DNA of 32,000 bases from Erysipelotrichaceae bacterium MTC7 (GCA_001695645.1 LVZN01000012.1:1-32000); one strand, 5' to 3'; shown: positions 4,115-25,707, numbered from the stretch's first letter. Notes: a model not told the origin generated them from the sequence alone. Made by a program: numbers and translations.

Positions 4115-4118
4115 AAAG

Positions 4119-6653: not shown

Positions 6654-6659
6654 AAAAAC

Positions 6660-7298: not shown

Positions 7299-7301
7299 AT
7301 A

Positions 7302-7332
7302 AAACCGGCATGCGTTGGCATGTCGGTTTTTT
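7302..7332 (+). terminator. rho-independent terminator of the PTS operon
   Basis: ACCGGCATG (7304-7312) pairs with CATGTCGGT (7319-7327) with one G:U pair, followed by a T6 run. Confidence 0.8.
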
Positions 7333-7346
7333 GAAAGGAGGAATGC

Positions 7347-8729: not shown

Positions 8730-8814
8730 GCATAGTCGACTGAAACTTCATGCCAATGACGGATTTCATCGTTAACGTTTCTTCAATAAAGCATATGAAG
8801 AAAGGAGAAAAACG

Positions 8815-9255: not shown

Positions 9256-9260
9256 GAATT

Positions 9261-9290
9261 AAGCAAAGAGGTACATCTTCTTTGCTTTTC
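9261..9290 (+). terminator. rho-independent terminator
   Basis: AAGCAAAGA (9261-9269) pairs with TCTTTGCTT (9279-9287), followed by a T-run. Confidence 0.75.
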
Positions 9291-9358
9291 ATTTACGATA
9301 CATAAAGTTCATTAGTTACATAAAATCAATTTGTTGGCCTCCTCTTTTTGTTTTGATG

Positions 9359-9367
9359 TGGTATAAT
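9359..9367 (+). promoter_or_regulatory. extended -10 promoter element of the GntR pair
   Basis: TGGTATAAT (TGn + perfect TATAAT) lies 23 nt upstream of ATG 9390. No good -35 is present. Confidence 0.5.
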
Positions 9368-9389
9368 GAATCCGTAAAGAGGTTGTAGG

Positions 9390-10121
9390 ATGAAATTATT
9401 AACATTAGACATTATTGTCTGCAATGAAATTAAATATTTGATTGAAAACACACCACTTCAAGAAGGTGAAAAATTACCAAGTGAGCGTGAGTTAACAGAG
9501 CGATTTGAAGTTCAACGCGGAACGGTGCGAACAGGACTGAAATTGTTGCTACAAGAAGGTTGGATTTGCGCAAAAGAAAGAAGTGGATATTTTGTTGCAC
9601 CTCGGCGAATTGAAAAGAATGTGTATCGCATTTCTTCAACATCACAAACCGTTGCAGAAATGGGAAAAAAACAACGTTTGAAGCTGTTGTCAATTTCACG
9701 TCAAGAGGTGGGAAAAGATTTATCATTGAAGCTTAAGCTGCCAATAGGAACCAAGTACTATGCAATTGAACGTATACGTTATGTGGATGATGAAAAAGTT
9801 TCTTTGGAAACATCGGCTGTACCTTATAACGTAGCACCTGATTTAGATAAGAAAGATTTAGAGAGTCATTCATTATATGATGTGCTTGAAGATGATTACT
9901 TAAATAACATTGCGTTTTCTGAACAGGAAATTATTGTTGTCGAAAGTGATGAGTATCTAGCAAAGGCATTATCAATTCCAACTGGTCAAAAATTGGTTAA
10001 ACAGCAGGGACTTGTTATGTCAAAAGAAAAAGAACCGATTGAATACATCGAGGCATATATGCTGATGGATCGATTCGTATTTGTGAATAATGATTTATTA
10101 CCAAAGAAAGGAAGAAGCTAG
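9390..10121 (+). CDS. GntR-family transcriptional regulator, HutC subfamily (wHTH + UTRA)
   Basis: wHTH LPSERELTERFEVQRGTVRTGLKLLLQEGWICAKERSGYFV, followed by a C-terminal domain of about 160 aa, UTRA-sized. Confidence 0.85.
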   Translation: MKLLTLDIIVCNEIKYLIENTPLQEGEKLPSERELTERFEVQRGTVRTGLKLLLQEGWICAKERSGYFVAPRRIEKNVYRISSTSQTVAEMGKKQRLKLLSISRQEVGKDLSLKLKLPIGTKYYAIERIRYVDDEKVSLETSAVPYNVAPDLDKKDLESHSLYDVLEDDYLNNIAFSEQEIIVVESDEYLAKALSIPTGQKLVKQQGLVMSKEKEPIEYIEAYMLMDRFVFVNNDLLPKKGRS

Positions 10122-10905: not shown

Positions 10906-11082
10906 AGTGTTTAATACTTTGAAAAAGTGATAAAGCTATGCTGGAAAAGAATAAGTCGTATCTTGAATTCATAATAACAGTAAAAACTTAAAATCAAGTA
11001 ATTGTATTTGTATAGCAAACTGTATGTTCACATACAATTCAGAGAGGAGAAGCTTAATGAAATAGTAAGGACTTGCTAGATT

Positions 11083-11091
11083 TGTTATAAT
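11083..11091 (+). promoter_or_regulatory. extended -10 promoter element upstream of the ABC gene
   Basis: TGTTATAAT lies 33 nt upstream of ATG 11124. The -35 is weak (TAGTAA). Confidence 0.45.
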
Positions 11092-11123
11092 TTAGAAAAG
11101 GGATAATACTCGAAAGGATATGT

Positions 11124-14100
11124 ATGTTAAAACTTAAAAACATCCGAAAGTCGTATAAAACACAGGATTTTGTGCAAGTTGCGTTGGATGATGTAACGGT
11201 TTCGTTTCGCGACAATGAGTTTGTTGCAATCTTAGGACCAAGTGGTTCTGGAAAAACGACCATGTTAAACATCATCGGTGGACTTGATCAATATGAATCA
11301 GGTGACTTAGAAATCGACGGGATATCAACAAAAAAATACAAATCATCGGATTGGGATACCTATCGTAACAATCGGATCGGTTTTGTGTTTCAAAGCTACA
11401 ACTTAATTCCACATCAAAGTGTACTGGCAAACGTAGAACTTGCCTTAACCATCAGTGGAGTTTCAAAGAAGGAACGTCACCAACGTGCGCTTGCTGCTTT
11501 AACTGAAGTGGGGTTAGCAGAACATGTAAAGAAGTTACCAAGTCAACTTAGTGGTGGACAAATGCAACGTGTTGCAATTGCAAGATCACTTATCAACAAT
11601 CCAGAAATCCTATTAGCTGATGAACCAACTGGAGCATTGGATACTAAAACCAGTGTACAAGTTATGGATTTACTCACAAAGATTGCAAAAGATCGTTTGG
11701 TCATTATGGTTACACATAACCCAGAATTGGCAGAAGATTATGCAAATCGAATTATCAATCTGCGTGATGGAAAAATCGAGAGTGATAGCAATACAGTAAC
11801 CCCTAAAGAAGAAGCTCAGGTAAAAACAGCAAAGAAACCACGAAAAGTGAATATGTCACTGTTTACGGCTTTGTCACTATCATTTAGTAACCTTCTATCG
11901 AAAAAAGGTCGAACGTTTATTACTTCGTTGGCTGGTTCCATAGGAATTATTGGAATTGCGGCAATCTTGGCATTAGCAAGTGGTATTAATGCATATATTG
12001 GTGACATTGAAGAAGATACAATGAGTATGTATCCGTTGACGATTCAAACCTCTGGTGTTGATATTACAAGTTTCTTAAGCAATGCACCAGCAAGTAGCGA
12101 TGAAAATCAAAACAAATCAAAAGGTGATATCGGTATTAATAATGTGTTCCAAACGATGTTTAGTTCACAAAATAAAAACGATTTAAAATCCTTGAAAGCG
12201 TATATTGAAAACAATCCAAATAAAATTGATCCATATGTAAAAAGTGTGCAATATACCTATGATGTTACCCCACAAATTTACTTGGGGGATAGTTCATCGA
12301 GTGTTTCGCAAGTAAGTCCAGATGCCTTAATGGCATCTTATGGATTTTCGTCAACATCAGGTATGAATGCAGTCATGGGAAGTAGTGTTTCCATGATGAA
12401 TAACTTCCATGAATTACCCGGTGACAGCAGTATGTACGATGAACAATACGACATTAAAGCGGGAAGATGGCCGACCAAATATGATGAAGCAGTTATGGTG
12501 TTATCAAACAGTGGTCGCATCTCGGATTATATGTTGTATTCTCTTGGCATCAATGATCGTGAAAAACTCAAACAAATGCTGGATGCATTTGTGAATGATC
12601 CTACAAAACAACTTGCCTTGGACAAATCCAATCAAAAAATTGATTATGATGATATACTTGCGGCAAACTTAAAAGTAATCAATCCATCAAGTAAATACGT
12701 TTATGATGAAGAGTATAAAGTTTGGTTAGATAAATCTGATGATGCTACGCATATGAAGCAGGTTATTCAGGAAGGAACCAATTTGAAAATCGTTGGTGTT
12801 GTTCAACCTGACCCTGATGCGAATGTGACATCATTGTCGATGGGAATCAATTATACACCTGCATTGATTAGTCACTTGATTGATGAGGCATCAAATCAAA
12901 AACTGGTAGAAGCACAGCTTGCAACACCAACAGTAAATGTATTGAGTGGAAAATCATTTGCGATTGAAACAGAAGAGAACCGTCAAAATCAATTCGATGT
13001 TTCTTCTTTATTTTCGGTGAATGAACAAGCAATACGTTCTGCATTTAACATTGATACTTCAAAATTGCAATTTGATACGTCATCTTTGTTTAATTTTGAT
13101 ATTTCTAATATAGAACTTCCACCAATGGATATAAGTGGTTTAACTGCACAACTTGCAGGACAGGTACAAATTCCAACAGACCAACTGACGTCGATATTTA
13201 CAGGTGTATTGGAAGATTTCATCGCTGAACAAGTCAGTGCAGGAGTTAGCGATCCTGCAGAATTTATGCAAAACTTAGCAGCGTATTTGAATCGGGCTGA
13301 TGTGCAACAAAAAGTCAGCAATCAATTGCAAAGTGTAATTACAGATTCTGGCGTAAGTGATCAAGTTAGCAGTGTGGTGCAAAACTACATGGCAACAACG
13401 ATGCAAAGTTATATGACAGAGTTGTTTGCATCGGTGCAAGGACAAATTCAAAAACAAATGGAAAGTGCCATGGCACAACTTCCATATCAACTACAAAACG
13501 CCTTAACCATTGATACAAGTGCCTTGCAACATGCTTTTAGCATCAATGTGACTGAAGATGATATGGTGGATTTAATTATGGCGATGATGAATCCAAAAGA
13601 AACATCTTTTGAAAACAATCTAAAAACATTTGGTTATGCCAATAAAGAAGCACCAAATCAGATTAATATTTATCCAAAAGACTTTACGACAAAAGAGCAT
13701 ATCATCTCATTCTTAGATACTTACAATAACAAAATGAAAACCGCAGGTGATGACAACAAGGTGGTTCGCTACACGGACTTGGTTGGAACACTGATGTCAT
13801 CGGTAACTGATATTGTGGATACGGTAAGTTATGCATTGGTTGCTTTTGTGGCAATTTCACTAGTAGTATCTAGTATTATGATTGGTGTCATTACCTATAT
13901 TTCTGTTTTGGAACGTAAAAAGGAAATTGGAATTTTACGTGCGATTGGGGCAAGTAAGCGGGATATCCGTCGTGTTTTCAATTCAGAAACGTTGATTATC
14001 GGATTTACTGCTGGTGCCATAGGAATCATAGTTACCTATCTTATTAGTATTATTGCCAATATCATTGTCTATGACAAAATCGGGATTGCCAATATTGCCC

Positions 14101-14225
14101 AACTATCACCAATTGCCGCAGGTATCTTGATTTTAATCAGTATGTTTTTAGCGTTTATTGCAGGACTGATTCCTTCATCTGCAGCTGCTAGAAAAGATCC
14201 AGTAGAGGCATTACGAAGTGAATAA
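11124..14225 (+). CDS. fused ABC transporter ATP-binding protein/FtsX-family permease (MacB-type, single polypeptide)
   Basis: N-terminal ATPase with Walker A GPSGSGKTT, signature LSGGQMQRVAIARSL, Walker B LLADEPTGALD and H-loop VTHN. TM1 spans about residues 245-290, followed by roughly 570 aa of soluble insert. The C-terminal FtsX block is ERKKEIGILRAIGASKRDIRRVF plus 3 TM. Confidence 0.85.
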   Translation: MLKLKNIRKSYKTQDFVQVALDDVTVSFRDNEFVAILGPSGSGKTTMLNIIGGLDQYESGDLEIDGISTKKYKSSDWDTYRNNRIGFVFQSYNLIPHQSVLANVELALTISGVSKKERHQRALAALTEVGLAEHVKKLPSQLSGGQMQRVAIARSLINNPEILLADEPTGALDTKTSVQVMDLLTKIAKDRLVIMVTHNPELAEDYANRIINLRDGKIESDSNTVTPKEEAQVKTAKKPRKVNMSLFTALSLSFSNLLSKKGRTFITSLAGSIGIIGIAAILALASGINAYIGDIEEDTMSMYPLTIQTSGVDITSFLSNAPASSDENQNKSKGDIGINNVFQTMFSSQNKNDLKSLKAYIENNPNKIDPYVKSVQYTYDVTPQIYLGDSSSSVSQVSPDALMASYGFSSTSGMNAVMGSSVSMMNNFHELPGDSSMYDEQYDIKAGRWPTKYDEAVMVLSNSGRISDYMLYSLGINDREKLKQMLDAFVNDPTKQLALDKSNQKIDYDDILAANLKVINPSSKYVYDEEYKVWLDKSDDATHMKQVIQEGTNLKIVGVVQPDPDANVTSLSMGINYTPALISHLIDEASNQKLVEAQLATPTVNVLSGKSFAIETEENRQNQFDVSSLFSVNEQAIRSAFNIDTSKLQFDTSSLFNFDISNIELPPMDISGLTAQLAGQVQIPTDQLTSIFTGVLEDFIAEQVSAGVSDPAEFMQNLAAYLNRADVQQKVSNQLQSVITDSGVSDQVSSVVQNYMATTMQSYMTELFASVQGQIQKQMESAMAQLPYQLQNALTIDTSALQHAFSINVTEDDMVDLIMAMMNPKETSFENNLKTFGYANKEAPNQINIYPKDFTTKEHIISFLDTYNNKMKTAGDDNKVVRYTDLVGTLMSSVTDIVDTVSYALVAFVAISLVVSSIMIGVITYISVLERKKEIGILRAIGASKRDIRRVFNSETLIIGFTAGAIGIIVTYLISIIANIIVYDKIGIANIAQLSPIAAGILILISMFLAFIAGLIPSSAAARKDPVEALRSE

Positions 14226-14820
14226 GGTAAAGCGACAAATCCTTGGTTTTGGCGATAGCATCATCACAGGAATGAATGATGAAGTGCATGGTGGTTGGTT
14301 CAATCGCCTGAAGCAGGGATTGTATTCTTCAGGTGAGAACACCTCATTTATGAACTTTGGTGTTCCAGGTCAAATAACTGCAGAACTATTACAAAACTTT
14401 GAGACTTTGATACAGACACATAAAGTTGAAGATGCAAAACTTACCATCATCCTTGCTACAGGAGTCAATGATTCACAAATCTTTGGTGGCAAGTATCGTG
14501 TAACAGTGGAAGCGTTTGAAGAACAGTTTATCGAACTAGTTAGAAAAGCGTTAAACTATACAAACGATGTATATGTGATTGGACTGACTCATGTGGATGA
14601 AGCAAAAACAAACCCCATCATCTTTCACTCACAAATGTGTTTTAGAAATGATAGAATTCAAGCGTTTGATACCATTATCAAAGAAGTTTGTTTGAGTAAG
14701 AAGGTCTGTTATATTCCGCTGTCTGGTTTGCTTGCAAAGATAGAACTTACTGATGGGTTACATCCTAATAGCAAAGGACATGAAAAGATATATCAACGCA
14801 TACGACAATATATGAGATAA
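14218..14820 (+). CDS. SGNH/GDSL-family hydrolase (lipase/esterase/acylhydrolase)
   Basis: Block I GFGDSIITG, block III TGVNDS, block V DGLHPN. No signal peptide. The GTG start overlaps the ABC gene stop by 8 nt. Confidence 0.8.
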   Translation: MNKVKRQILGFGDSIITGMNDEVHGGWFNRLKQGLYSSGENTSFMNFGVPGQITAELLQNFETLIQTHKVEDAKLTIILATGVNDSQIFGGKYRVTVEAFEEQFIELVRKALNYTNDVYVIGLTHVDEAKTNPIIFHSQMCFRNDRIQAFDTIIKEVCLSKKVCYIPLSGLLAKIELTDGLHPNSKGHEKIYQRIRQYMR

Positions 14821-14845
14821 GAGACTTTTTATGAGTCTCTTTTTG
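14819..14845 (+). terminator. rho-independent terminator
   Basis: AGAGACT (14820-14826) pairs with AGTCTCT (14834-14840), followed by a T-run. Confidence 0.8.
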
Positions 14846-14862
14846 CTTGTTTGCAGGATGAT

Positions 14863-14891
14863 TTGAAGTTATTTCAAGATTGGCGTATATT
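14863..14891 (+). promoter_or_regulatory. sigma-A-type promoter of the ClC gene
   Basis: TTGAAG at 14863-14868, a 17-nt spacer, and TATATT at 14886-14891. Confidence 0.55.
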
Positions 14892-14929
14892 TATAGGTGA
14901 AGTTTTTTTCTGTTTAAGGGGGAGTAATT

Positions 14930-16504
14930 GTGGAAAAAGATACGATAGAACAGCTCAAACGCACCAGACTGTATGGATTATCACTAGTTGGTGAGGGAAT
15001 TTTGGTTGGTCTTGTTGCTGGTTTAGTTGTTGCCTGTTATCGTTTAGCACTGACGCATGCAGATACACTGCGAAATTCCATCATTGAAGTAGCAAGTTTG
15101 GATCCACTAAAAATGGCATTATGGTTTTTGGTGCTAATCATACTAGCGATCGTCGTGTATGTGCTCGTAAAAAAAGAACCCATGATTTCAGGTAGTGGAA
15201 TTCCACAACTCGAAGGGGAGATTGTTGGTGCCATTCAGCAAACATGGTGGAAAGTCGTATTCGCAAAATTTAGTGGTGGATTACTTGCTTTGTTTGGTGG
15301 GTTGGCACTAGGAAGAGAAGGACCATCCATTCAACTAGGGGCAATGATGGGTAAAGGTGCTGGACAAGTATTAAAAAGTAGTCAATCGCGACAACGTTTC
15401 TTACTCACTTGTGGAGCAAGCGCAGGTTTGTCTGCAGCCTTTCATGCGCCACTAGCCGGTGTCTTGTTTTCTTTAGAAGAAGTCCATAAAAACTTCTCAA
15501 TTTCTTTGCTTGTTGGAGTCATGGCTTCATCTTTGACTGCTGACATGCTTACGTCCCTTTTAATAGGTGAAGAAGTCGTTTTTCATATTCCGATTGTAGA
15601 TAACATTCCACATGAATCCTATGGTTACATCATTTTACTTGGTCTTATTCTTGGTTTGGGTGGTGTATTTTATAACTGGTTTACACTACAGATGCAACAA
15701 GCCTACCAAAAACTAACAAAGATACCCGGTTTTATGAAAATGATGATTCCTTTTGTAGTAGCAGGTGTGTTAGCTTTCACAAGTCCAGAACTACTAGGAA
15801 GTGGACATAACTTGATCGAATTGTTAACCTCAAAAAATCTCATGGTATCAACCATGTTGTTTTACCTGGTTGGTCGTTTTATATTCTCTGGAGTATCCTT
15901 TGGCTCAGGTGCGCCCGGTGGTATTTTCTTTCCTTTGTTAGTGATTGGAGGATTTATTGGTGGTCTGTTTGCCAGTCTTGCTAGTACGCATCTAGGTCTG
16001 GATCCTGGATATCTCAACAACTTTGTGGTACTTGCTATGGCTGGTTATTTTGCTGCAATAGTGCGTGCACCACTAACTGGAATTATCCTTTTGTTTGAGA
16101 TGACGGGTTCCATGAATCAAATGTTGTCGTTATCACTAGTATCTATTGTTGCCTATCTTGTGGCTACTTTATTAGGTAGCGAGCCAATCTATGAAAGCTT
16201 GCTGGATCGCTTACTGCATAAACAAAAAAGTGATGACGTTCAAGTTAGTTATAAACCTGGGGAAAAGATGATTGTTTCATTTGCGGTAGAAGCAAACTCA
16301 ACTTTTGATGGAGCAAGCATTAAGCAAATTGCGCTACCTGAACATAGTTTGATTGTGAGTATTCAGCGTGGTATGAATGAAATCATTCCTAATGGAGATA
16401 CGCTTGTGTTAGTTGGTGATTTGCTCATGGTTATGACAAGTAAAGATCAACAAGCAGAAGTGGATGCACACATGCGAAAACTCGTGCAGGAACAACGCAA
16501 ATGA
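14930..16504 (+). CDS. ClC-family voltage-gated chloride channel/H+-Cl- antiporter with C-terminal TrkA-C-like domain
   Basis: Selectivity-filter motifs GSGIPQ, GREGPSIQLG and GAPGGIFFPLL. The C-terminal soluble part of about 80 aa resembles TrkA-C (IKQIALPEHSLIVSIQRG...GDTLVLVGDLLMVM). GTG start with SD AAGGGGGAG. Confidence 0.9.
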   Translation: MEKDTIEQLKRTRLYGLSLVGEGILVGLVAGLVVACYRLALTHADTLRNSIIEVASLDPLKMALWFLVLIILAIVVYVLVKKEPMISGSGIPQLEGEIVGAIQQTWWKVVFAKFSGGLLALFGGLALGREGPSIQLGAMMGKGAGQVLKSSQSRQRFLLTCGASAGLSAAFHAPLAGVLFSLEEVHKNFSISLLVGVMASSLTADMLTSLLIGEEVVFHIPIVDNIPHESYGYIILLGLILGLGGVFYNWFTLQMQQAYQKLTKIPGFMKMMIPFVVAGVLAFTSPELLGSGHNLIELLTSKNLMVSTMLFYLVGRFIFSGVSFGSGAPGGIFFPLLVIGGFIGGLFASLASTHLGLDPGYLNNFVVLAMAGYFAAIVRAPLTGIILLFEMTGSMNQMLSLSLVSIVAYLVATLLGSEPIYESLLDRLLHKQKSDDVQVSYKPGEKMIVSFAVEANSTFDGASIKQIALPEHSLIVSIQRGMNEIIPNGDTLVLVGDLLMVMTSKDQQAEVDAHMRKLVQEQRK

Positions 16505-16505
16505 T

Positions 16506-16544
16506 AAAAAAACATTCCTTTGGTATCACAGAGGAATGTTTTTA
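16506..16544 (+). terminator. rho-independent terminator
   Basis: A 12-bp stem: AACATTCCTTTG (16511-16522) pairs with CAGAGGAATGTT (16529-16540) with one G:U pair, followed by a T-run. Confidence 0.85.
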
Positions 16545-16661
16545 CTTTGTATATTTCATAAATAAGATATGGTAAGATAAAAGTGTAAATAGGGGTCCAA
16601 GTTTTTATTTCATTCAATAATGAATGAAACGATACGTTAAAAAGTGTTGAGGAGGGAATAT

Positions 16662-18293
16662 ATGGTGCTTGTTAGTTGGAAAAATGCATTTGCATCTCAT
16701 CTTTTAGCACGAGGTGAAATGTATTTTAAAAAAGGTTTAGTTTCGACTGTCGAAAGGAAAGGTGATAGGTATGAAGCCAATGTTTATGGAACGAGCACCT
16801 ATGACACGTCTGTGGTAGTTAGCGATGAACTACTTACAGATGCAAAGTGTAGTTGTCCAAGTTTCAAGTTTGGAAATTTATGTAAGCATTTAGCTGCTTT
16901 ATTATTTGAATTGGAAGATGCAAAAGTAATTCCTATATATGTAGACATGAATTTAAAAGTTGACATATTTGTGGAAAAAGACAAAACAAGCACAAACTAT
17001 GCTAGATATAAACTACGTAAAGAGAATCCGTTTCAGAAGATACAAAAAAGAAATGCAATCACAAATTTGCATACATTTGAAATGACGTTAGAATCCATCC
17101 ATGATTCTTTTATTGATTATGATGAGGATTACATTGATGATGAAGCCAGTGAGTTTTATGCGGAAGAAGTATTAGAAGAAACCACACGTAGTGTATATGT
17201 TTTACTGGAAGAAAACCAAATACGAAAAGCATATGAACTTGTGATGATTGCCTTAAAAAGGCTTTCGTATAGTGATGCATCTGATGCGTTTGGTTATTTA
17301 GAACAAACGAAACAAGCGTATTGTGAATTACTATATCAAGTGATTCACAAAGCAAGTATAAAAGAAAAAAAAGAATTATTGATGCTCATTGATGAATTTT
17401 GGAAAGATAATATATGCACTCTTGATGATGTGTATGTAATTGCTTTACTGGAAGAAGCCTTTGATGAGTTATTGATTCGAGAACGATTGCATGTTCTAGA
17501 AAATTTTCTTATGTCGTATGTTGATGAAAACAGAGGATACCGAAAAAATGAAGTAGCAGTGTTGTGGTTTTTAGCTCTAGAGAAATTACTTACGAAGATA
17601 GGTCATACATACGAGATTGATCGAATTTATGAACAGTATAGTAAAACGCTAGAAATCAAGGTATATCGATTTTGGCAGTTGTTGGAACAACGAAAGGATG
17701 AACAATTGATTTCGTACCTTGAACAAGAAGTGGAGAATTTTGATTTTATCGCAAACATAGTGCAATATGCGAATCAAATAAAAGCCTGTTACAAGCGACT
17801 AAAGCGCGAAAATGATTATTATGTATTCGTCCAAAAAATACTATTCGATTTAAATGTCGGTGATTATACTATGTATCGTGATTATCGGAGTCAAGTTAGT
17901 TTATTTTGGTGGGAGCATCAAGGTTACAACATGGTAAAAAAACTGAAATTTATGGAAAGACCACGCGTGTATATACAAGAAGGAATGTATGATTTATTGC
18001 TTGATTATGCGCGAGGATTGCCTAATCAAGAAATGGATTATTATGTTGATATTTTAAAAGAGATATATCCACAAGAACTACTAGAGTATTATGAACAAGA
18101 ATTTATTCGTTTGTCTACACCGCGTACTAACGAATATGGAATTCCGCCTATCATCCACACATTGCGTATGTTGCAACGTATTGATGGTGGTAAACAAAAA
18201 GCAAAGAAGTTGATTCAAATATATGCAATGAAGTATCCAAATCGCAAACGTCTAAACCAAGAAATGCAAGTGTTTGAAAACCAATACTTGTAA
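16662..18293 (+). CDS. SWIM zinc-finger domain protein with long helical C-terminal region, function unknown
   Basis: I start it at ATG 16662 (SD GAGGAGGG). The SWIM signature is CSCPSFKFGNLCKHLAALL (CxCx(n)CxH) near residue 65. The remaining ~450 aa are rich in E/Y/L/K, with no Walker or nuclease motif seen by eye. Confidence 0.75.
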   Translation: MVLVSWKNAFASHLLARGEMYFKKGLVSTVERKGDRYEANVYGTSTYDTSVVVSDELLTDAKCSCPSFKFGNLCKHLAALLFELEDAKVIPIYVDMNLKVDIFVEKDKTSTNYARYKLRKENPFQKIQKRNAITNLHTFEMTLESIHDSFIDYDEDYIDDEASEFYAEEVLEETTRSVYVLLEENQIRKAYELVMIALKRLSYSDASDAFGYLEQTKQAYCELLYQVIHKASIKEKKELLMLIDEFWKDNICTLDDVYVIALLEEAFDELLIRERLHVLENFLMSYVDENRGYRKNEVAVLWFLALEKLLTKIGHTYEIDRIYEQYSKTLEIKVYRFWQLLEQRKDEQLISYLEQEVENFDFIANIVQYANQIKACYKRLKRENDYYVFVQKILFDLNVGDYTMYRDYRSQVSLFWWEHQGYNMVKKLKFMERPRVYIQEGMYDLLLDYARGLPNQEMDYYVDILKEIYPQELLEYYEQEFIRLSTPRTNEYGIPPIIHTLRMLQRIDGGKQKAKKLIQIYAMKYPNRKRLNQEMQVFENQYL

Positions 18294-18314
18294 TATATAT
18301 AAGGGAGATCAATC

Positions 18315-19880
18315 ATGAAATTAATGGACTATGTTAACAGTATAGAAAAAGAAGAAGTATACGAAATGTATGCGAAGTTAGTCAAAAAAACGAAAGCTTA
18401 TCATAATATTACAAGAAAGCAAATGGCACAAAATATAATAGATGTCTATGCAACCTTTGATCAAGAAATGTTTGATCGGTTTATCAATACGGAGGAGTAT
18501 AAAATATTGTATCATGCATTGAAGCAACCGTACGATATGCCACTGTTAAATACTGCTGTAGATACACTCATGGACAAAGGGATTTGTCACGTTTACTTCA
18601 ACAAGCAAAAACAAAACTTGGAGATTCAAATCTTTGATGAGTTTGTTCCTATGATCAAAACATTTGTAAAAACAGAAAAGCCGTCAAAAAAGATGCAAAA
18701 AGAAAGTGATTTCTATTTTGCATTGGTCGGCTATGTGTTTTCACAAGCTGCCTGTCCACTCAATGTGACAATGAAGAATCTTGCAAGTTTACTTGACTGT
18801 AGTGAACTGGAATTGGAACATTGGTTTTTAACTTCAAAATCGATGCCGTTCGTGATAAGTTTGATTAATGATGACACCATGTTTGAAGATGATTCATATC
18901 ATTTGGTACTAAATAACTTAACTGAACAGTATACGGAAATACTTGATGCACGCGATCAACTTGGCGATGATTTTCCCATTCTACTTTTAAGTTTAAAAGA
19001 ATACATTGAACTTGGAAAGACGTATTTATCATACTGGGACCTAAATGTTAAAAAATTCATCAAATATTTGGAAAGTATAAAGAAACTTCCACTGTTTCGT
19101 GGCGATTTACTCAACATCTTTATTGACTTGACAATGTTTTCCATGAAGTCAGATCGTTATATGGAATATTTAGTAGCGCAATTTGAACAACATTATCCAG
19201 ATAAGGATAGTGAGAAATTTATGAAAATCATGGATAAAGCATTTATGAATTCAGTGTCGGCAATGTTAGGCGCGAATAAACCAATTGAATTTATGATGTT
19301 GATGGATGGCAAAAAAGAATCAAAACAGCAACACGCGCATCTAAGTGAAAGTGATGCCAATCTTTTTTATGAATTGTATTTCGCTTTGCTTGAGTTCGTA
19401 AATAAAAAACGTAAAGTTGTTCGAAAAGGAAAACTCAAGTTGTATAAAAAAACTAACCATAATCCGATGGAAGTTGCCGCTATACGCGATGCTTTGTTTG
19501 AGGACCTTGGATTGATTGATGCATTTGTTAAAGAGAATCCTTATAAGTTTAACCAGGAAAAGTTGGATATGGTCGCTGCATTTCGTTTAGGTAAGTCGGA
19601 TATTTTTACACTTACAAGCTTTGAAAAGGAGTATACGGTTTTGCTTGGTCAACAACATCGATATGCGGTTTTGGGTTTACGAACAAACCTCGATGAAATC
19701 TATCGTGGATCACTACCAAGAGCAATAAAGACTGCCTTACTGCCATTTAAAGGGAAGATAGTTTTTGATGGTATGTTTGCAGAACTACCAATCGAGATGG
19801 GCAAAGGGATGAGAGACATGATTGATCAAGAACTTAAAGAACTTCCTTTATTAACAAGCTTTAACGTTCTATACCATTAA
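18315..19880 (+). CDS. hypothetical protein (521 aa), no recognisable domain
   Basis: Long ORF with SD AAGGGAGA, 21 nt after the SWIM gene. It has no TM segments, signal peptide or catalytic motif that I can recognise. Confidence 0.7.
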   Translation: MKLMDYVNSIEKEEVYEMYAKLVKKTKAYHNITRKQMAQNIIDVYATFDQEMFDRFINTEEYKILYHALKQPYDMPLLNTAVDTLMDKGICHVYFNKQKQNLEIQIFDEFVPMIKTFVKTEKPSKKMQKESDFYFALVGYVFSQAACPLNVTMKNLASLLDCSELELEHWFLTSKSMPFVISLINDDTMFEDDSYHLVLNNLTEQYTEILDARDQLGDDFPILLLSLKEYIELGKTYLSYWDLNVKKFIKYLESIKKLPLFRGDLLNIFIDLTMFSMKSDRYMEYLVAQFEQHYPDKDSEKFMKIMDKAFMNSVSAMLGANKPIEFMMLMDGKKESKQQHAHLSESDANLFYELYFALLEFVNKKRKVVRKGKLKLYKKTNHNPMEVAAIRDALFEDLGLIDAFVKENPYKFNQEKLDMVAAFRLGKSDIFTLTSFEKEYTVLLGQQHRYAVLGLRTNLDEIYRGSLPRAIKTALLPFKGKIVFDGMFAELPIEMGKGMRDMIDQELKELPLLTSFNVLYH

Positions 19881-19899
19881 TGTAAGAAAGTAGGTACCT

Positions 19900-20301
19900 A
19901 TGAAAAAAGTAGCATTTTTATGTGTGCATAATTCTTGTCGTTCACAGATGGCAGAAGCACTAGCAAAAAAAGAAGCAAGTGATGTGTTTGAAGCATATAG
20001 TGCAGGCACAAAACTAAAGGATCACATCAATCCAGATGCTGTAAAGATCATGAAAAAACTGTATGGCATCGATATGGAACAAACCCAAAAACCTAAGTTA
20101 TTAGGCGATATCCCAAACGTGGATATCATCATAACGATGGGATGTAATGTAGAATGTCCACATATTCCTGGAGTTTATACAGAAGATTGGGGATTGGAAG
20201 ATCCCACTGGAAAAGATGTAAATGCCTTTCAACAAACAGCAACAACGATTGAAGAAAAAGTGAAAGATTTGAAAAGAAGAATTCAAAACGGAGAACGCTA
20301 A
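19900..20301 (+). CDS. arsC: LMW-PTP-family arsenate reductase (thioredoxin-coupled ArsC type) or related phosphatase
   Basis: P-loop CVHNSCRSQMAE (CX5R-S), second Cys pair in TMGCNVECP, and EDWGLEDP. 133 aa. It starts only 19 nt after the preceding gene. Confidence 0.8.
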   Translation: MKKVAFLCVHNSCRSQMAEALAKKEASDVFEAYSAGTKLKDHINPDAVKIMKKLYGIDMEQTQKPKLLGDIPNVDIIITMGCNVECPHIPGVYTEDWGLEDPTGKDVNAFQQTATTIEEKVKDLKRRIQNGER

Positions 20302-20346
20302 GCGATAAAATCCATGCAAGAATTTCTTTTATCCATTTGTCTGAAA

Positions 20347-20355
20347 TGTTATAAT
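20347..20355 (+). promoter_or_regulatory. extended -10 promoter element upstream of purC-like gene
   Basis: TGTTATAAT lies 62 nt upstream of ATG 20417. The -35 is weak. Confidence 0.45.
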
Positions 20356-20416
20356 CCTTATAGAATGCATAATATAGTCGTTATGAAATTCTACATATAA
20401 GATGAGGAGATAAGGT

Positions 20417-21103
20417 ATGAAAACATTGTATTCGGGAAAAACAAAAGATGTATTAACAGATGATAACGGTCGTGTATTTTTATTCTTTAAAGATAGTGCA
20501 ACCGGAGAAAATGGTGTATTTGACCCAGGAAGCAACACCGTTGGTGGAAGTGTTGAAGGAAAAGGTAAAACGGGTTTAAAAATCACAAGTTATTTCTTTG
20601 AACTTATGGAAAAAAATGGAATTCCAACGCATTACCTAGGTTCTGATATTGATGCAGGATTGATGGAAGTTCGCAAAGTAACCGTACCACCATTAGAATT
20701 TGTCTTACGTTATTTTACAGCAGGAAGTATGTGTCGTCGTTTTACGCTTGAAGAAGGAATTGCGTTTGAACCGCCATATTTGGAAGTGACTTTAAAAGAT
20801 GATGAACAAGGAGACCCATTAATCAGTGAACGTTTATGCTTATTAAAAGGATTCTTAAAACCAGGACAATACGATGAAGCATTGGATGTATTAGTTAAAG
20901 TAGGGGAAGTTCTTCGTAAAGAAGTAGCGAGCATGGGTTACACGCTAATTGATTTCAAAATTGAACTTGGATATGATGAACATGGTAAGGTTGTCGTAGC
21001 TGATGAAATTACACCAGATATTTGGCGCATTAAAGATGAAAATGGAAATATTCCAAATCAAATTGAATGTGCAAACATGTTACTTGAAAAAATCGAAAAA
21101 TAA
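20417..21103 (+). CDS. purC: SAICAR synthetase family protein (PurC-like)
   Basis: N-terminal LYSGKTKDV, plus LEFVLRYFTAGS, LIDFKIELG and VVADEITPD, matching PurC blocks. 228 aa. SD GAGGAG. Confidence 0.75.
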   Translation: MKTLYSGKTKDVLTDDNGRVFLFFKDSATGENGVFDPGSNTVGGSVEGKGKTGLKITSYFFELMEKNGIPTHYLGSDIDAGLMEVRKVTVPPLEFVLRYFTAGSMCRRFTLEEGIAFEPPYLEVTLKDDEQGDPLISERLCLLKGFLKPGQYDEALDVLVKVGEVLRKEVASMGYTLIDFKIELGYDEHGKVVVADEITPDIWRIKDENGNIPNQIECANMLLEKIEK

Positions 21104-21108
21104 TTCAC

Positions 21109-21146
21109 AAACGCATTTCTATTAAAACGTAGAGATGCGTTTTCTT
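21109..21146 (+). terminator. rho-independent terminator
   Basis: AACGCATTTCT (21110-21120) pairs with AGAGATGCGTT (21131-21141) with one G:U pair, followed by a T-rich tail. Confidence 0.75.
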
Positions 21147-21172
21147 GCGATGTTTGTTGCAGATAACTTTGC

Positions 21173-21206
21173 TTGACTAAAGCAGTGACTAATGATAGTC
21201 TTTATT
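21173..21206 (+). promoter_or_regulatory. promoter with overlapping Fur-box-like operator of the iron ABC operon
   Basis: TTGACT at 21173-21178, a 17-nt spacer, and TAGTCT at 21196-21201. ACTAATGATAGTCTTTATT (21188-21206) matches the 19-bp Fur consensus GATAATGATAATCATTATC at 14/19 by hand count. Confidence 0.5.
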
Positions 21207-21251
21207 AAGGTTAGTTGTGTCTAACATTTAAGGAAAGTGAAGGTAGAATAC

Positions 21252-22262
21252 ATGAAAAAAACAATGATATCCATGCTTGCAATGGTTTTTATCATTGCAG
21301 GATGTTCAACGGATAATGCAAAAAGCAATGATGAATCAAATAGTGAAGGAACTTGGCCAGTGGTGGTTCAACACGCCTTTGGTGAAACGACAATCGAGAA
21401 AAAGCCAGAACGTGTGGTCAGCATCCAGTGGGAAAACCAAGATGTTGCCTTGGCACTAGGTGTAGCACCAGTTGCAATGTCGGCTCCTGCATACGGTTTG
21501 CAAGATGGACAAGCCATGCGTCCATGGACCCAAGAAGCATATGACAAGCTTGGGGTAGAACCAATCATCTTTGATGATGGTGATGGACTTGACTTTGAGG
21601 CAATCGCTGATGCAAATCCCGATGTAATTATTGCAGCTTATGCTGGCTTTTCAAAAGAAGACTATGAATTGTTAAGTCAGATTGCACCAACGATTGCTTA
21701 TGAAGATACACCTTGGATGATTACCTGGCAAAGTCAAATCTTACAAGATTCCAAAGGTCTTGGACTAGCAAAAGAAGGGGAAGCACTTGTCAAAGATTTA
21801 GAAAGTCAAATTGCAGACGAGGTTGCAAAATACGATGCGCTTGAAGGGAAAAGTGCGGTCTTTACTTGGTTTAACCCAGAAGATACATCAAGTTTCTTTG
21901 TATATGGAACGGGTGAAACACGTGCTAGTTATCTTCAGGATTTTGGTTTAACACTACCTACGGAAGTAAAAAAACTAACGGATGATAGCGATGTGTTTTA
22001 TGCAACGGTTAGTGCGGAACAAGCAGAAATTTTAAACGATGCAGATATCTTGGTGATTTACGGGAATAAAGATGTGTTAGAAGTCTTACAAAACGATCCA
22101 TTGTTAGGTAAAATTCCTGCCATTGCAAATGGTTCTGTTGTAGTTTTAGATGATAGTAGTGATTTTGCAACAGCAAACACAACACCAACAGCATTGTCCA
22201 TTCCATATACGATGAAAGATTATGTTAAACTGTTAGGAGAAGCAGCTAAGAAAGTAAAATAA
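21252..22262 (+). CDS. iron-siderophore ABC transporter substrate-binding lipoprotein
   Basis: I start it at ATG 21252. The signal peptide carries the lipobox IIAGCS. RVVSIQWENQDVALALGVAP is typical of FhuD/FepB-type class III binding proteins. Confidence 0.85.
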   Translation: MKKTMISMLAMVFIIAGCSTDNAKSNDESNSEGTWPVVVQHAFGETTIEKKPERVVSIQWENQDVALALGVAPVAMSAPAYGLQDGQAMRPWTQEAYDKLGVEPIIFDDGDGLDFEAIADANPDVIIAAYAGFSKEDYELLSQIAPTIAYEDTPWMITWQSQILQDSKGLGLAKEGEALVKDLESQIADEVAKYDALEGKSAVFTWFNPEDTSSFFVYGTGETRASYLQDFGLTLPTEVKKLTDDSDVFYATVSAEQAEILNDADILVIYGNKDVLEVLQNDPLLGKIPAIANGSVVVLDDSSDFATANTTPTALSIPYTMKDYVKLLGEAAKKVK

Positions 22263-22265
22263 ACG

Positions 22266-23264
22266 ATGAAGAAACGAAATGTATATCTATTTGTAATTGT
22301 ATTATTTGTTGCACTTGCAGGTAGTATCTTATTATCATTAGCACTAGGTTCAAAGAACATCCCGATTGAGGATGTTCTTCGTCGTGTGTTTAACGCATCA
22401 CAAGATAGTTTTGATGGTGCAATTATTCAACAACGTATGGTGCGAACCGTGTTTGCTTTGCTAGCAGGGGCAGCACTAGCTGTATCTGCGTTGCTGATGC
22501 AATCACTTACGCGTAATCCAGTTGCTGATCCAAGTATACTAGGTGTAAATGCAGGTGCAGCCTTAGCTGTTGTAGCAGGTATTACGTTTTTTCATATTGC
22601 TAGTGCGGACCAGTTTATTTTATTTGCGATTGTTGGAGCTGCGATTACTACAGCATTTGTGTATACCATTGCTTCCGTTGGTCGTGAGGGTGCTACACCA
22701 ATGAAACTTGCACTGGCTGGAGCAGTCAGTAATGGTGCTATTGCATCTTTGATCAATATGTTGGTGTTACCACAAGCAGAATCACTAACGAATTTTAGAC
22801 ACTGGCAAGTAGGAAGTGTCCATGGTGCAACATGGGATCATATACTCTTGTTGTTGCCATTTATCGTGTTTGGCTTTTTATTAGCCATGTATGTTGCTCC
22901 GTCACTAAATGCCATTGCACTAGGTGATGATATGGCAACTGGACTAGGGGTCAAGGTAAAACGGATTCGTTTTTTAACGGTTCTTGCAGCAGTCACCTTA
23001 GCGGGTTCCATCACTGCGCTTGCTGGTCCGATTGGTTTTGTTGGTTTGATGGTGCCGCATTTGCTGCGGTTGCTTTTCAAAGACAATATCAAACTGTTAA
23101 TCCCATTATCGATGATTACAGGAGCAACCTTGCTTTGTTTTGCTGACACGATTGGGCGTATCATTGCACGTCCTGCGGAAGTTGAAGTTGGTATTTTAAC
23201 CGCATTGATTGGAGCTCCATTATTTATTTATGTAGTAATTAAATCGAAGGTGAAGTCATTATGA
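22266..23264 (+). CDS. iron-siderophore ABC transporter permease (FecCD family)
   Basis: 332-aa polytopic protein. The FecCD-like blocks are RNPVADPSILGVNAGAAL and LTALIGAPLFIY. Confidence 0.9.
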   Translation: MKKRNVYLFVIVLFVALAGSILLSLALGSKNIPIEDVLRRVFNASQDSFDGAIIQQRMVRTVFALLAGAALAVSALLMQSLTRNPVADPSILGVNAGAALAVVAGITFFHIASADQFILFAIVGAAITTAFVYTIASVGREGATPMKLALAGAVSNGAIASLINMLVLPQAESLTNFRHWQVGSVHGATWDHILLLLPFIVFGFLLAMYVAPSLNAIALGDDMATGLGVKVKRIRFLTVLAAVTLAGSITALAGPIGFVGLMVPHLLRLLFKDNIKLLIPLSMITGATLLCFADTIGRIIARPAEVEVGILTALIGAPLFIYVVIKSKVKSL

Positions 23265-24295
23265 TAGAAAACACAAAACAAACGGTGCGCATTGGATTCA
23301 AACGCCGAAAACGTCGCGCCCAACTAGCAACCATAGGACTAGTGGTACTCGCACTTTTTTGTATGATTTTGATGTTGGTGTTGGGGAATACCAATTACTC
23401 ACTTGCCACGGTCTTTGATGTATTGTTAGGTCAAAAAATTCAAGGTGCAAGTTTTGCGATAGGGACCATTCGTCTGCCAAGAATGTTAGCCGGTGCCTTC
23501 ACTGGATTTGCCTTAGGCCTTGCTGGAAGTGTGTTTCAAAAAATGTTACGCAATACCTTAGCTAGCCCAGATATTGTAGGGGTTAGTGCTGGATCCAGTA
23601 TGGCGGCAGTCTTTTGTATTTTGATACTTGGAATGAGTGGATTTATGGTTTCTTTTGTTGCTTGTCTTGTTGGTTTACTCTGTGCCTTACTTATCTATGC
23701 ATTAGCCAACATTGGCCGTTTTTCTACATCACGCTTTGTCTTGATTGGAATTGGGATGCAAAGTGCAATTCAAGCAGTAATTTCTTATATGATGGTACGT
23801 GCTAACCAATATGAAGTTACAGGAGCCATGCGCTGGCTAAGTGGAAGTCTGAACGGAATTCAAATGAAGAGCATTCCCTTACTAGTTGGTGTTGTAGTTG
23901 TATTTACCATTGTCATATTGCTATGTGAACGCAATCTCAACATTCTTGAACTTGGTGAAGATTTAGCAACTGTGCTTGGTGTACGTATCAATTTCTATCG
24001 GATTTTATTAATTGTAAGTTCGGTTTGTTTGATTGCCTTTGCCACAAGTGTTGCAGGTCCCATTGCCTTTGTTTCGTTTTTGGCAGGACCGATAGCCGTA
24101 CGCTTGGTTGGTCCAGGTCGTTCTTATGCACTTGCTGCAGGAATGGTCGGACTCATCTTGGTACTGGCTGCTGATTTACTTGGACAGTTTGCTTTTAGCA
24201 CCCGTTTTCCAGTTGGGGTCATAACTGGTGTTGTGGGTGCTCCATACTTATTATTATTGCTTTTTGGTAAAAGAGGAAAGAAAGGAACGTTATGA
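23261..24295 (+). CDS. iron-siderophore ABC transporter permease (FecCD family, second subunit)
   Basis: 344 aa with blocks NTLASPDIVGVSAGSS and ITGVVGAPYLLLLL. Its ATGA start overlaps the upstream gene. Confidence 0.9.
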   Translation: MIENTKQTVRIGFKRRKRRAQLATIGLVVLALFCMILMLVLGNTNYSLATVFDVLLGQKIQGASFAIGTIRLPRMLAGAFTGFALGLAGSVFQKMLRNTLASPDIVGVSAGSSMAAVFCILILGMSGFMVSFVACLVGLLCALLIYALANIGRFSTSRFVLIGIGMQSAIQAVISYMMVRANQYEVTGAMRWLSGSLNGIQMKSIPLLVGVVVVFTIVILLCERNLNILELGEDLATVLGVRINFYRILLIVSSVCLIAFATSVAGPIAFVSFLAGPIAVRLVGPGRSYALAAGMVGLILVLAADLLGQFAFSTRFPVGVITGVVGAPYLLLLLFGKRGKKGTL

Positions 24296-25089
24296 AACAA
24301 CATAGTTTAGAAGCACGTCATATCGTTGCTGGATATGATAAGAAAATTATATTGGATGATGTAAGTGTCACGATACCTGATGGAAAAATCACGGTTATCA
24401 TCGGCAGTAATGCAAGTGGGAAATCGACTTTATTAAAAACGTTTGCCCGCTTACTTCTTGTACAAAAGGGTGGTATCTATTTGGATGATCAAGAAATTGG
24501 TACCATTCCAACCAAAGAACTGGCAAAAACTTTAGGTCTACTACCACAAACACCAATCGCGCCTGAAGGTATCAGTGTGTCTGATTTGGTAGCACGTGGA
24601 CGTTTTCCATACCAAAAGTTTATGGGTGGGATGAGCGACGAGGATCTTAGTGCAGTTGCAAATGCACTTGATATGATGGGTATTGCTGACTTAGCTGATC
24701 GAAGCATTGATGAATTATCTGGTGGACAACGACAACGTGTGTGGATAGCCATGGCCTTAGCGCAAGATACCGACATTCTATTCTTAGATGAACCAACAAC
24801 ATACTTGGATATCACCTATCAAATCGACATTTTGGAGTTACTTAAAGAATTAAATGAAAAGCATCATACAACCATCGTTATGGTTTTACATGATATCAAT
24901 TTATCTGCACGTTACGCGGATCATATGATCGCTGTTAAACATGGAGAGATTGTCGCTACTGGTTCACCAAGTGAAATTGTTACAGCAGAAAACATTAAAC
25001 ATGTCTTCGGTTTGGACTGTTTAATTATTGAAGACCCTGTATCAAAGACGCCGATGATTGTGCCAAAAGGTAACTACTTTACAAAGTAA
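24292..25089 (+). CDS. iron-siderophore ABC transporter ATP-binding protein (FepC/FhuC-like)
   Basis: Walker A GSNASGKST, signature LSGGQRQRVWIAMAL, Walker B LFLDEPTTYLD. Its ATGA start overlaps the upstream gene. Confidence 0.9.
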   Translation: MKQHSLEARHIVAGYDKKIILDDVSVTIPDGKITVIIGSNASGKSTLLKTFARLLLVQKGGIYLDDQEIGTIPTKELAKTLGLLPQTPIAPEGISVSDLVARGRFPYQKFMGGMSDEDLSAVANALDMMGIADLADRSIDELSGGQRQRVWIAMALAQDTDILFLDEPTTYLDITYQIDILELLKELNEKHHTTIVMVLHDINLSARYADHMIAVKHGEIVATGSPSEIVTAENIKHVFGLDCLIIEDPVSKTPMIVPKGNYFTK

Positions 25090-25209
25090 TAACATGCATG
25101 AGTATTGAACTTTTATGAATAGTTGGACATAATTTACGCTTAGCAATAAGTATACATTAATAGGTTTTATTGTTATGTATGTCGGTATACAAATGAAAGA
25201 AGAGGATTT

Positions 25210-25632
25210 ATGAGACGTATTGAAAAGGTTAAGCGCTTTTTTACCAACGTACCAACGTTGTGCATAAAAAATGAAACAGTAGAAGCAAAAAATACCTACA
25301 AATCCATTCGATTGTTGCATGTACTCATAGGTGATCATTTGTATTTTCTTATCGATGGGAAAGTAGATCACCTTTTATACATCAATGAAAACGACAAGCT
25401 CACAATAGATGGAACTCATGAGAATACTTGCTTACAGTATTTTGGACGAGTTATCTTTGTTGATGATGATTTGGTGGTAAAACAGATACAGGCGAAGCTA
25501 CTTGATGGAAATGCAGCGGTGCATACGAATCAACTAATTTCTTATAAGATCTTTTACCTGGCTAATGCAACAGCTACATGGATAATCGACCAACAAGTAG
25601 CCTATACCTATCATTTTGCAGCAATTGCATAA
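25210..25632 (+). CDS. hypothetical protein (140 aa); weak resemblance to PNPOx-like split-barrel proteins
   Basis: SD GAAGAGGA and a terminator downstream. The segment LYFLIDGKVDHLLYINENDKLTIDG...GRVIFVDDD recalls the YF.T...K....L..N..V......R..G.A.FV.D pattern. That comparison is from memory and was not tested. Confidence 0.45.
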   Translation: MRRIEKVKRFFTNVPTLCIKNETVEAKNTYKSIRLLHVLIGDHLYFLIDGKVDHLLYINENDKLTIDGTHENTCLQYFGRVIFVDDDLVVKQIQAKLLDGNAAVHTNQLISYKIFYLANATATWIIDQQVAYTYHFAAIA

Positions 25633-25683
25633 TCGTCCTGTTTAGTCCATCTACCATCTAAAAATGCTAAATCATAAAATAAG

Positions 25684-25707
25684 AAGTCCTATTATCAGGG
25701 CTTTTTT
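25684..25707 (+). terminator. rho-independent terminator
   Basis: AAGTCCT (25684-25690) pairs with AGGGCTT (25697-25703) with one G:U pair, followed by a T6 run. Confidence 0.7.

Follow-up and report, generated by a model that had tools for sequence, protein, structure and literature searches.

What kind of unit do two adjacent genes of Erysipelotrichaceae bacterium MTC7, both annotated "hypothetical", form, and do they belong together? The genes lie in a 32,000-nt stretch of DNA (GCA_001695645.1 LVZN01000012.1:1-32000), which was analysed at its full length and is hereinafter designated the window. An earlier reading of the DNA, made without database searches (the sequence-only reading), described them as a cassette consisting of a SWIM zinc-finger protein and a protein with no recognisable domain, and proposed a novel defence or regulatory system. 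The two open reading frames (ORFs) are present as described, with a gap of 21 nt between them and a separate Shine-Dalgarno sequence (SD) for each, and they match A4S06_01335 and A4S06_01340 of MTC7 exactly.

16662-18293, + strand: gene 1 (A4S06_01335), 543 aa; SWIM domain, predicted disordered linker (residues 96-164) and predicted TPR-like α-solenoid (residues 160-543)
18315-19880, + strand: gene 2 (A4S06_01340, OCN05058.1), 521 aa; member of a large unnamed family

The best explanation, which we hold at about even odds, is that the two are independently distributed, non-catalytic accessory genes that happen to be adjacent and are probably co-transcribed, gene 1 encoding a dispensable SWIM-TPR adaptor of the PDC-S62 type and gene 2 a member of a large unnamed family. 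The finding does not amount to a new two-gene defence system. Such a system, in which the SWIM-TPR protein senses an invader or a signal, gene 2 is the effector and both are inherited as a unit, is the alternative closest to the sequence-only reading, and a sister strain and the distribution of the two families both bear on it.

The sister contig, L001, aligns to positions 11022-16648 and 18235-25695 of the window with 89-97% nucleotide identity. The gene order of L001 is ABC/FtsX, GDSL, ClC, an empty place, gene 2, LMWPc, PurC and FecCD. Specifically, the ~1.55-kb body of gene 1 is missing, while its leader and its last ~50 nt are retained in a 174-nt spacer (L001 7813-7986) that replaces the gene. 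The leader and 3'-end remnants have ~75% identity, which is below that of the flanking genes, and within the spacer a palindrome of the gene 1 leader has decayed and the SD of gene 1 is lost. The matches of the spacer to the gene 1 leader and to the last ~50 nt were each reached in score by 0 of 2000 shuffles, and interior pieces of gene 1 gave no match to the spacer. Because the spacer matches both the leader and the end of gene 1, the gene was deleted in the sister strain rather than inserted in MTC7, and the insertion between housekeeping-type genes that had been read from the window has to be given up.

Gene 2 is intact in L001, with 94% amino-acid identity and a ratio of nonsynonymous to synonymous divergence (dN/dS) of 0.15 at dS 0.18, and thus is selectively maintained in a strain that lacks gene 1. 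Because the sister strain deleted gene 1 and kept gene 2, the pair does not behave as a dedicated two-gene system. The natural deletion also provides a ready-made, isogenic-like comparison.

The distribution of the two families was counted from both sides. A SWIM neighbour occurs at 3 of the 30 full-length gene 2 loci that have at least 2 kb on both sides, whereas the 64 full-length SWIM loci, which together span 659 kb (21 of them flanked by at least 2 kb at both ends, 50 at one end), include none with an intact gene 2 relative. Where both families are found, the arrangement of the window is not reproduced: the gene order differs and another gene intervenes. Specifically, in L012 and L032 a gene 2 relative is followed by a small gene and then by the SWIM gene, ~455 nt apart, and in L023 the SWIM gene is 4.8 kb from the gene 2 relative; in L086, from a Planctomycete, short forms of the SWIM and gene 2 relatives are 59 nt apart. 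The SWIM-linked gene 2 homologs are dispersed over the gene 2 tree, and the nearest relative of each is SWIM-less. In the SWIM tree, members encoded near gene 2 relatives branch off outside the main clade, and their branches are very long.

Members of the two families are therefore linked repeatedly but facultatively, and the proposed dedicated cassette is not supported, given the largely separate occurrence, the loss of gene 1 in the sister strain and the scatter over the tree. The two-gene system as an explanation is largely refuted because its two families rarely co-occur, and we consider it very improbable. It can point to the arrangement of the two genes, which resembles an operon and has a common leader and a palindrome, to the place of gene 1 in a PADLOC candidate family, to the defence-rich islands in which gene 2 homologs are found and to the recurrence of SWIM adjacency. 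Against these stand, besides the deletion and the counts and gene orders above, the lack of an effector-type domain in either protein, a neighbourhood in the window that is one of transport and metabolism and no defence island, and an ordinary GC content at third codon positions (GC3).

Two further loci, L104 and L108, were considered as cases of co-occurrence and rejected, the 48-aa gene 2-like fragment in them being too short and too weak. This stretch of ~48 aa, similar to the motif best conserved in gene 2 (profile positions 460-507; L104 ~4316-4456, L108 430-672), lies ~600 nt 5' of a SWIM-family gene. In L104 it follows in frame after an 855-aa ORF and may be a decayed or very divergent gene 2 relative.

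What, then, are the two proteins? Gene 1 carries the following domain.

16812-16910, + strand: SWIM zinc finger of gene 1 (residues 51-83; Pfam PF04434, E=3.5e-8; ligands C63, C65, C74 and H76)

The N-terminal finger read from the sequence is genuine. PF04434 scores 33.2 bits in gene 1, above the cut-off of 19.6, which places the protein in the SWIM family, and the four ligands are invariant among gene 1 homologs (alignments A2 and A3). The AlphaFold2 (AF2) model, with a mean predicted local distance difference test score (pLDDT) of 71 and an input alignment of 4 sequences, contains a SWIM domain made of a β-sheet and a helix (residues 1-90), a disordered linker (96-164) and an all-α solenoid (160-543). 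A Foldseek search with this model gave ZSWIM8 as the best natural match (E=2.8e-4), followed by the TPR scaffolds LapB, IFIT5 and OGT (E=2e-3 to 5e-2), all with low TM-scores of 0.16-0.23. The model and its TPR-type matches are in agreement with the helical-repeat-like region that had been proposed to follow the finger. A sequence-profile search of the PDB with alignment A2 found nothing. SWIM zinc fingers bind nucleic acid or protein, and TPR-like α-solenoids are protein-binding scaffolds.

The PADLOC profile PDC-S62 (PDLC05053, 566 positions), listed as a putative single-gene candidate for phage defence, describes proteins organised like gene 1, with an N-terminal SWIM finger, ~450 aa of helical sequence and a total length of ~540-570 aa. 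It differs from gene 1 in the reach of the match: the profile meets gene 1 over the SWIM region only (profile positions 20-93, E=8.5e-10), and the identity of gene 1 to its relatives is ~23%. The gene 1 homolog in L012 matches the same profile over positions 17-541 of 566 (E=1e-22), and residues 4-536 of gene 1 can be aligned with the L012 protein (E=3e-23); with its metagenomic relatives gene 1 reaches E=4e-36. By transitivity through the L012 homolog, gene 1 would be a divergent full-length member of the PDC-S62 type.

A word-indexed search had given a tiny gene 1 family of 3-4 relatives; this was rejected as an artefact of sensitivity, as shown by scans of the collections, which turned up relatives on at least 246 metagenomic stretches. 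The neighbours at 82 SWIM-family loci are mixed (MatE, DUF3990, GGDEF, Schlafen/AlbA_2 and Fic/DOC), and no conserved partner gene, including an ATPase or a helicase, was found across these loci. The family of gene 1 thus resembles PDC-S62 in a further respect, namely that of a single-gene candidate without a conserved partner. Gene 1 has no family match in PHROGs, and its plasmid matches are confined to the SWIM finger. A literature search retrieved no paper mentioning PDC-S62 and nothing informative on SWIM together with anti-phage activity. PDC entries are guilt-by-embedding predictions, most of them unvalidated (PMC12988326).

Two other groups of known proteins share features with gene 1. 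ZSWIM8-type substrate receptors (PDB 9rwz) place a long helical-repeat scaffold behind a SWIM finger and have no enzymatic domain, as in gene 1, but the context of gene 1 contains no cullin or ubiquitin machinery. The resemblance to ZSWIM8 and TPR proteins, seen in the predicted model, may indicate how gene 1 works, namely as an adaptor, and implies no family membership. SWIM proteins of SNF2/DpdE-helicase or MoxR-vWA systems share the finger, and the PADLOC DpdE profile matches gene 1 (E=1.4e-5), but only residues 9-81, the SWIM region, are covered by this match. In the cassette and in its neighbours, ClC and LMWPc, no gene or domain of the helicase, ATPase or vWA type was found. The sequence-only reading had remarked on the missing ATPase or helicase partner, and it is indeed absent from both proteins and from the neighbouring genes. 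A type II toxin-antitoxin pair was considered as well and rejected, on the sizes of the two proteins (543 and 521 aa) and the lack of any toxin or antitoxin domain in the window genes.

Gene 2 is best described by two regions of its chain.

18315-18914, + strand: N-terminal α/β region of gene 2 (residues 1-200), predicted winged-helix-like order of helix and β-hairpin; AF2 confidence mostly 80-96
19332-19859, + strand: C-terminal domain of gene 2 (residues ~340-515), the hallmark of the family in alignments A1 and A4; motif LLPFKGxIVFDG

No match to gene 2 was found in Pfam, NCBIfam, PADLOC, PHROGs or PDB sequences, consistent with the earlier statement that it has no recognisable domain. Neither protein has a transmembrane-like segment (maximum Kyte-Doolittle score KD19 1.1-1.3) or a conserved Walker A motif, also as had been stated; a Walker-A-like AAFRLGKS in gene 2, found by a regular expression, was rejected since it is not conserved in the family. 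The description of both proteins as non-enzymatic and uncharacterised holds in that no catalytic domain was recognised. The two proteins are unrelated to each other by hhalign.

The AF2 model of gene 2 has a pLDDT of 80.5 overall and mostly 87-96 in the C-domain, with dips to 74-82. The C-domain of ~175 aa consists of a helical part and then five β-strands, with a helix between strands 3 and 4, and carries the motif LLPFKGxIIYDG. P468 is invariant, and F351, L359, N363, N408, Y450, F478, I482 and D485 are nearly invariant. A whole-chain Foldseek search against the PDB (E<=1e-3) and BFVD returned nothing significant, and a sequence-profile search of the PDB with alignment A4 returned nothing. 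Weak local Foldseek matches were obtained to TFE-alpha, SarX and Stn1 (probability 0.60-0.66) and to HIN, S1 and RPA (probability 0.3-0.54), all of them with E ~0.9-1.5; for the N-terminal region, matches to winged helix-turn-helix proteins had E ~0.5-1.5. The predicted order of secondary-structure elements is compatible with winged helix-turn-helix or OB folds, the structural matches themselves not being significant.

The family of gene 2 is very large. When the profile was searched exhaustively, at least 2,874 representatives of clusters at 50% identity came up at E<=1e-3, 710 of them at E<=1e-30, and a single peptide pattern sufficed to locate relatives in no fewer than 340 species-representative genomes, bacterial and archaeal. 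The same profile search showed that a tiny family of 14 relatives, obtained by a word-indexed search, was an artefact of sensitivity, and this estimate was discarded. The full-length form of ~500 aa occurs mainly in gut Bacilli, Erysipelotrichales and "Tenericutes" metagenome-assembled genomes. Short forms of the C-domain (~270-300 aa) occur in Planctomycetota, Desulfobacterales, cyanobacteria, ANME-1, Methanosarcinales and Bathyarchaeia. The C-domain can make up a protein by itself or be joined to other modules, and the family members are "hypothetical" in all public sources. Gene 2 has no match in IMG/VR or phage genomes and one weak match in plasmids.

Two named protein groups overlap with this family. 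A SEC-C motif, as in the SEC-C/SecA-type metal-binding domain (MBD) proteins YecA and YchJ, is found in some gene 2 family representatives (13/160, described below); gene 2 of the window differs from YecA and YchJ in having no SEC-C motif (CxCx8-9C[CH]), three cysteines in all and no UPF0149/UPF0225-type Pfam match, and the remainder of its sequence has no kinship with theirs. Planctomycete relatives of gene 2 fuse the C-domain to DUF6398 (PF19935; E=6.5e-41 and 1.3e-37), whereas gene 2 of the window has no DUF6398, a domain that is itself uncharacterised. A literature search on DUF6429 and DUF6398 gave nothing informative.

A protein of 554 aa with an N-terminal SAP domain is encoded directly 3' of gene 2 homologs in L006 (4851-6512), L026 and L034, in the position that the SWIM protein holds elsewhere. 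A kinship between the N terminus of gene 2 and this SAP-domain protein was considered and dropped (hhalign E=0.06, probability 0.9%).

Under the favoured explanation of two independent accessory genes, gene 1 would be a non-catalytic adaptor, in which a flexible linker connects the SWIM finger with a TPR-like solenoid scaffold. Gene 2 would also be non-catalytic, with winged-helix-like α/β modules and a helical linker leading to the hallmark C-domain. Gene 2 would be the selectively maintained gene, working without gene 1, and gene 1 dispensable cargo that has landed beside gene 2 relatives several times. Both proteins would then act by binding rather than by catalysis, the gene 2 family would act in variable or conflict-type regions of the genome, and any cooperation between gene 1 and gene 2 would be optional.

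Several points weigh against this explanation. There are four or five independent juxtapositions of SWIM and gene 2 relatives (the window, L012, L032, L023 and L086), and because these exceed naive chance for such a family, some functional affinity is possible. The 21-nt spacing and the shared leader fit an operon. The 64 SWIM loci may under-sample a partner subfamily, because the gene 2-linked SWIM proteins lie outside the main clade. Binding in place of catalysis is suggested by predicted folds and by the lack of recognisable catalytic motifs, and the gene 1 model among these folds has a mean pLDDT of only 71 from its 4-sequence alignment.

The genes around the pair and around its relatives bear on whether gene 2 is an accessory gene at all. 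By our own reading of the sequence, the left part of the window encodes SIS isomerases, a mannose-type phosphotransferase system, a DeoC-like aldolase, a MATE transporter, a GNAT acetyltransferase and two GntR regulators. The part from 11 to 25.7 kb, assigned by synteny with L001, encodes ABC/FtsX, GDSL, ClC, LMWPc, PurC and an iron-siderophore ABC transporter. The neighbourhood is one of transport and metabolism, and no defence gene was found in the window.

Full-length gene 2 homologs elsewhere lie within long co-directional arrays. In L002 (6810-14381), L003 (6589-14162) and L029, a gene 2 homolog with 29% identity is situated between a divergent WYL-domain gene and a small HIRAN-like gene, which is followed by a complete Wadjet (JetABCD-like) operon. 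Other neighbours of gene 2 homologs are AbiEii with its partner, Abi_2, HsdR/HsdM and a HipA-like (HipA_C) kinase; a 1,050-aa UvrD-type helicase, a DUF4143 ATPase and DUF6429; and MNT/HEPN, IS66 and SecB. Taken by themselves, these neighbour lists suggest that gene 2 homologs reside in variable or defence islands. The conflict or accessory flavour that had been attributed to the pair is thus borne out by the PDC-S62 candidate family of gene 1 and by the Wadjet, AbiE, Abi_2, type I restriction-modification (R-M) and HipA-like genes near gene 2 homologs.

Short forms in archaea have a different setting, a block with the order CDC48, class-V aminotransferase (Aminotran_5), (CopG), (CxxCxxCC), short form and HAD hydrolase, which ribosomal protein genes adjoin. 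The block is present in L049, L060, L066, L070, L076 and L079, at ~6500-9600 in each, from ANME-1, Methanosarcinales and Bathyarchaeia.

Alternatively, gene 2 could be a regulatory or housekeeping factor of the chromosome with no part in genetic conflict, such as a DNA-binding regulator linked to the downstream ArsC-type/purC genes, and the island contexts would be incidental. Such a factor would fit the stable place of gene 2 between ClC and LMWPc/PurC in two strains under purifying selection, the distance of 19 nt to the LMWPc gene with no terminator between them, the archaeal block beside CDC48 and ribosomal protein genes, the absence of the family from phage and viral collections and effectively from plasmids, and the predicted winged-helix-like order of secondary structure. 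The same proposal has to accommodate highly mixed neighbourhoods across Bacilli with no recurrent metabolic partner, the frequency of CopG antitoxin, PIN, HEPN/MNT, AbiE and R-M genes as neighbours, a patchy taxonomic distribution and structural evidence for DNA binding that is not significant. We judge a housekeeping role for gene 2 to be unlikely, and the accessory genes of the favoured explanation remain the reading that we follow.

In two Planctomycetota and one cyanobacterial locus, a heavy-metal P-type ATPase gene (HMBD and YHS) adjoins the short form (L057 2570-5002, L059 2915-5338 and L073 2822-5218).

A further question is whether the C-domain of gene 2 has partners of a recurring kind. 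A SEC-C motif (CxCGSGKKYKKCC) is present in 13 of 160 gene 2 family representatives (P0012, P0083, P0096, P0109, P0117, P0126, P0127, P0132, P0140, P0145, P0146, P0147 and P0160), in a flexible linker just before the C-domain. A CxxCxxCC gene (PF03692) lies directly 5' of gene 2 relatives in gut Bacilli (12-21 nt apart), in Bathyarchaeia (overlapping) and in Desulfobacterales. A SWIM gene is near gene 2 relatives in 5 loci. SecA-type MBDs bind metal, SecB and ribosomes (10.1101/613315).

These observations allow a facultative partnership, in which the C-domain works with a small Zn/Fe-binding module, either built in or encoded next to it, and the SWIM-TPR protein is an in-trans module or adaptor that modulates gene 2 and is not essential to it. 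The partnership draws on the SEC-C motif before the C-domain, on CxxCxxCC genes directly 5' in three distant lineages, on the SWIM-adjacent loci, including the Planctomycete short forms 59 nt apart, and on the loose grouping of gene 2-linked SWIM proteins outside the main SWIM clade; a SecB gene directly 5' of the homolog in L011 would fit as well, given the binding of SecB by SecA-type MBDs (10.1101/613315). However, such a neighbour or insertion is lacking at roughly three of every four full-length loci with good flanks, and gene 2 of the sister strain is under purifying selection without a SWIM gene. In addition, SEC-C, CxxCxxCC and SWIM are unrelated folds, so that the "same role" of the three modules is only an analogy. 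We regard this partnership as doubtful, at roughly one chance in a handful or slightly better.

A broader proposal, which we put forward as tentative and rather unlikely, is that the C-domain is a widespread undescribed module that works with a Zn/Fe-binding module in cis (SEC-C) or in trans (CxxCxxCC or SWIM), sometimes under a CopG-type antitoxin. It would constitute a new element of conflict or stress response, of which the pair in the window would be one in-trans variant.

A CopG-type antitoxin gene (PF12441) overlaps the start codon of the short form in Methanosarcinales (L076 6620-6889) and in Desulfobacteraceae (L087 6328-6618), and another is located at L079 5675-5923. The layout of CopG gene and short form resembles that of toxin-antitoxin pairs; this architecture differs from that of the window. 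In L011, a SecB-family gene (PF02556; 2431-2805) lies 56 nt 5' of a full-length gene 2 homolog (2862-4397), and together with two small genes ahead of it the locus may represent a toxin-antitoxin-chaperone set.

With the pair read as independent accessory genes, each has an interest of its own. Gene 1 would be a very divergent Erysipelotrichaceae addition to a catalogued family of SWIM and TPR-like defence candidates. Gene 2 exposes a very large bacterial and archaeal family that is unnamed in curated databases and resembles no solved structure. The habits of this family, namely variable or defence-rich islands in gut Bacilli, SEC-C insertions and CxxCxxCC, SWIM or CopG neighbours, make it tractable for curation and experiments.

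How are the two genes expressed? The features of the transcription unit, apart from the genes themselves, are as follows.

16508-16543, + strand: terminator-like hairpin at the end of the upstream ClC-channel gene; 15-bp stem then T-run, conserved in L001
16608-16629, no strand: perfect 9+9 palindrome TTTCATTCA-ATAA-TGAATGAAA in the gene 1 leader, 32 nt 5' of the ATG
16649-16656, + strand: SD of gene 1, GAGGAGGG, read from the sequence, 5 nt 5' of ATG 16662
18301-18308, + strand: SD of gene 2, AAGGGAGA, read from the sequence; counterpart AAAGGGGA retained in L001
19900-20301, + strand: low-molecular-weight (LMW) phosphatase/ArsC-type gene, 19 nt 3' of gene 2; PF01451 on the syntenic L001 gene

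The hairpin is the left boundary of the transcription unit of the cassette. The ORF of gene 1 has 549 aa if counted from GTG 16644; the NCBI annotation is the 543-aa form. On the + strand of the 157-nt leader, no sigma-70-type promoter scoring at least 9/12 was found, and for this reason no promoter is named. At the other end, the ArsC-type gene and gene 2 are probably co-transcribed, because the 19-nt gap contains no terminator that could be found and the arrangement is kept in the sister genome; the ArsC-type gene is context and lies outside the pair.

The palindrome, which the sequence-only reading had called regulatory, is perfect over its 9+9 positions and occurs once in the window; one or more matches with up to 3 mismatches turn up in 12 of 100 shuffles. 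As an RNA hairpin it is unremarkable (fold z = -1.8), and the window contains no RNA family according to an Rfam scan. What stands of the earlier claim is thus the repeat itself, and its role is that of a candidate operator proposed from sequence.

At 0.336, the GC content of the cassette is below that of the window (0.363) and falls in the lowest 2.6% of 3.2-kb windows, within a full range of only 0.332-0.413. The GC3 of the two genes is 0.27 and 0.33, inside the range of 0.21-0.33 of the other window genes. The "much lower GC" reported before was therefore an overstatement, and the compositional case for horizontal acquisition fails because GC3 is ordinary.

The alignment of the window (11022-25695) with L001 (2250-15390) is a mosaic of divergence. 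ABC/FtsX and ClC have a dS of ~0.08, and GDSL between them has a dS of 0.25 with 88% amino-acid identity. On the 3' side of the cassette, dS climbs from 0.18 in gene 2 to 0.97 in the second FecCD gene. The cassette itself is located at a switch of nucleotide identity from 96.9% to 88.7%, which suggests recombination breakpoints.

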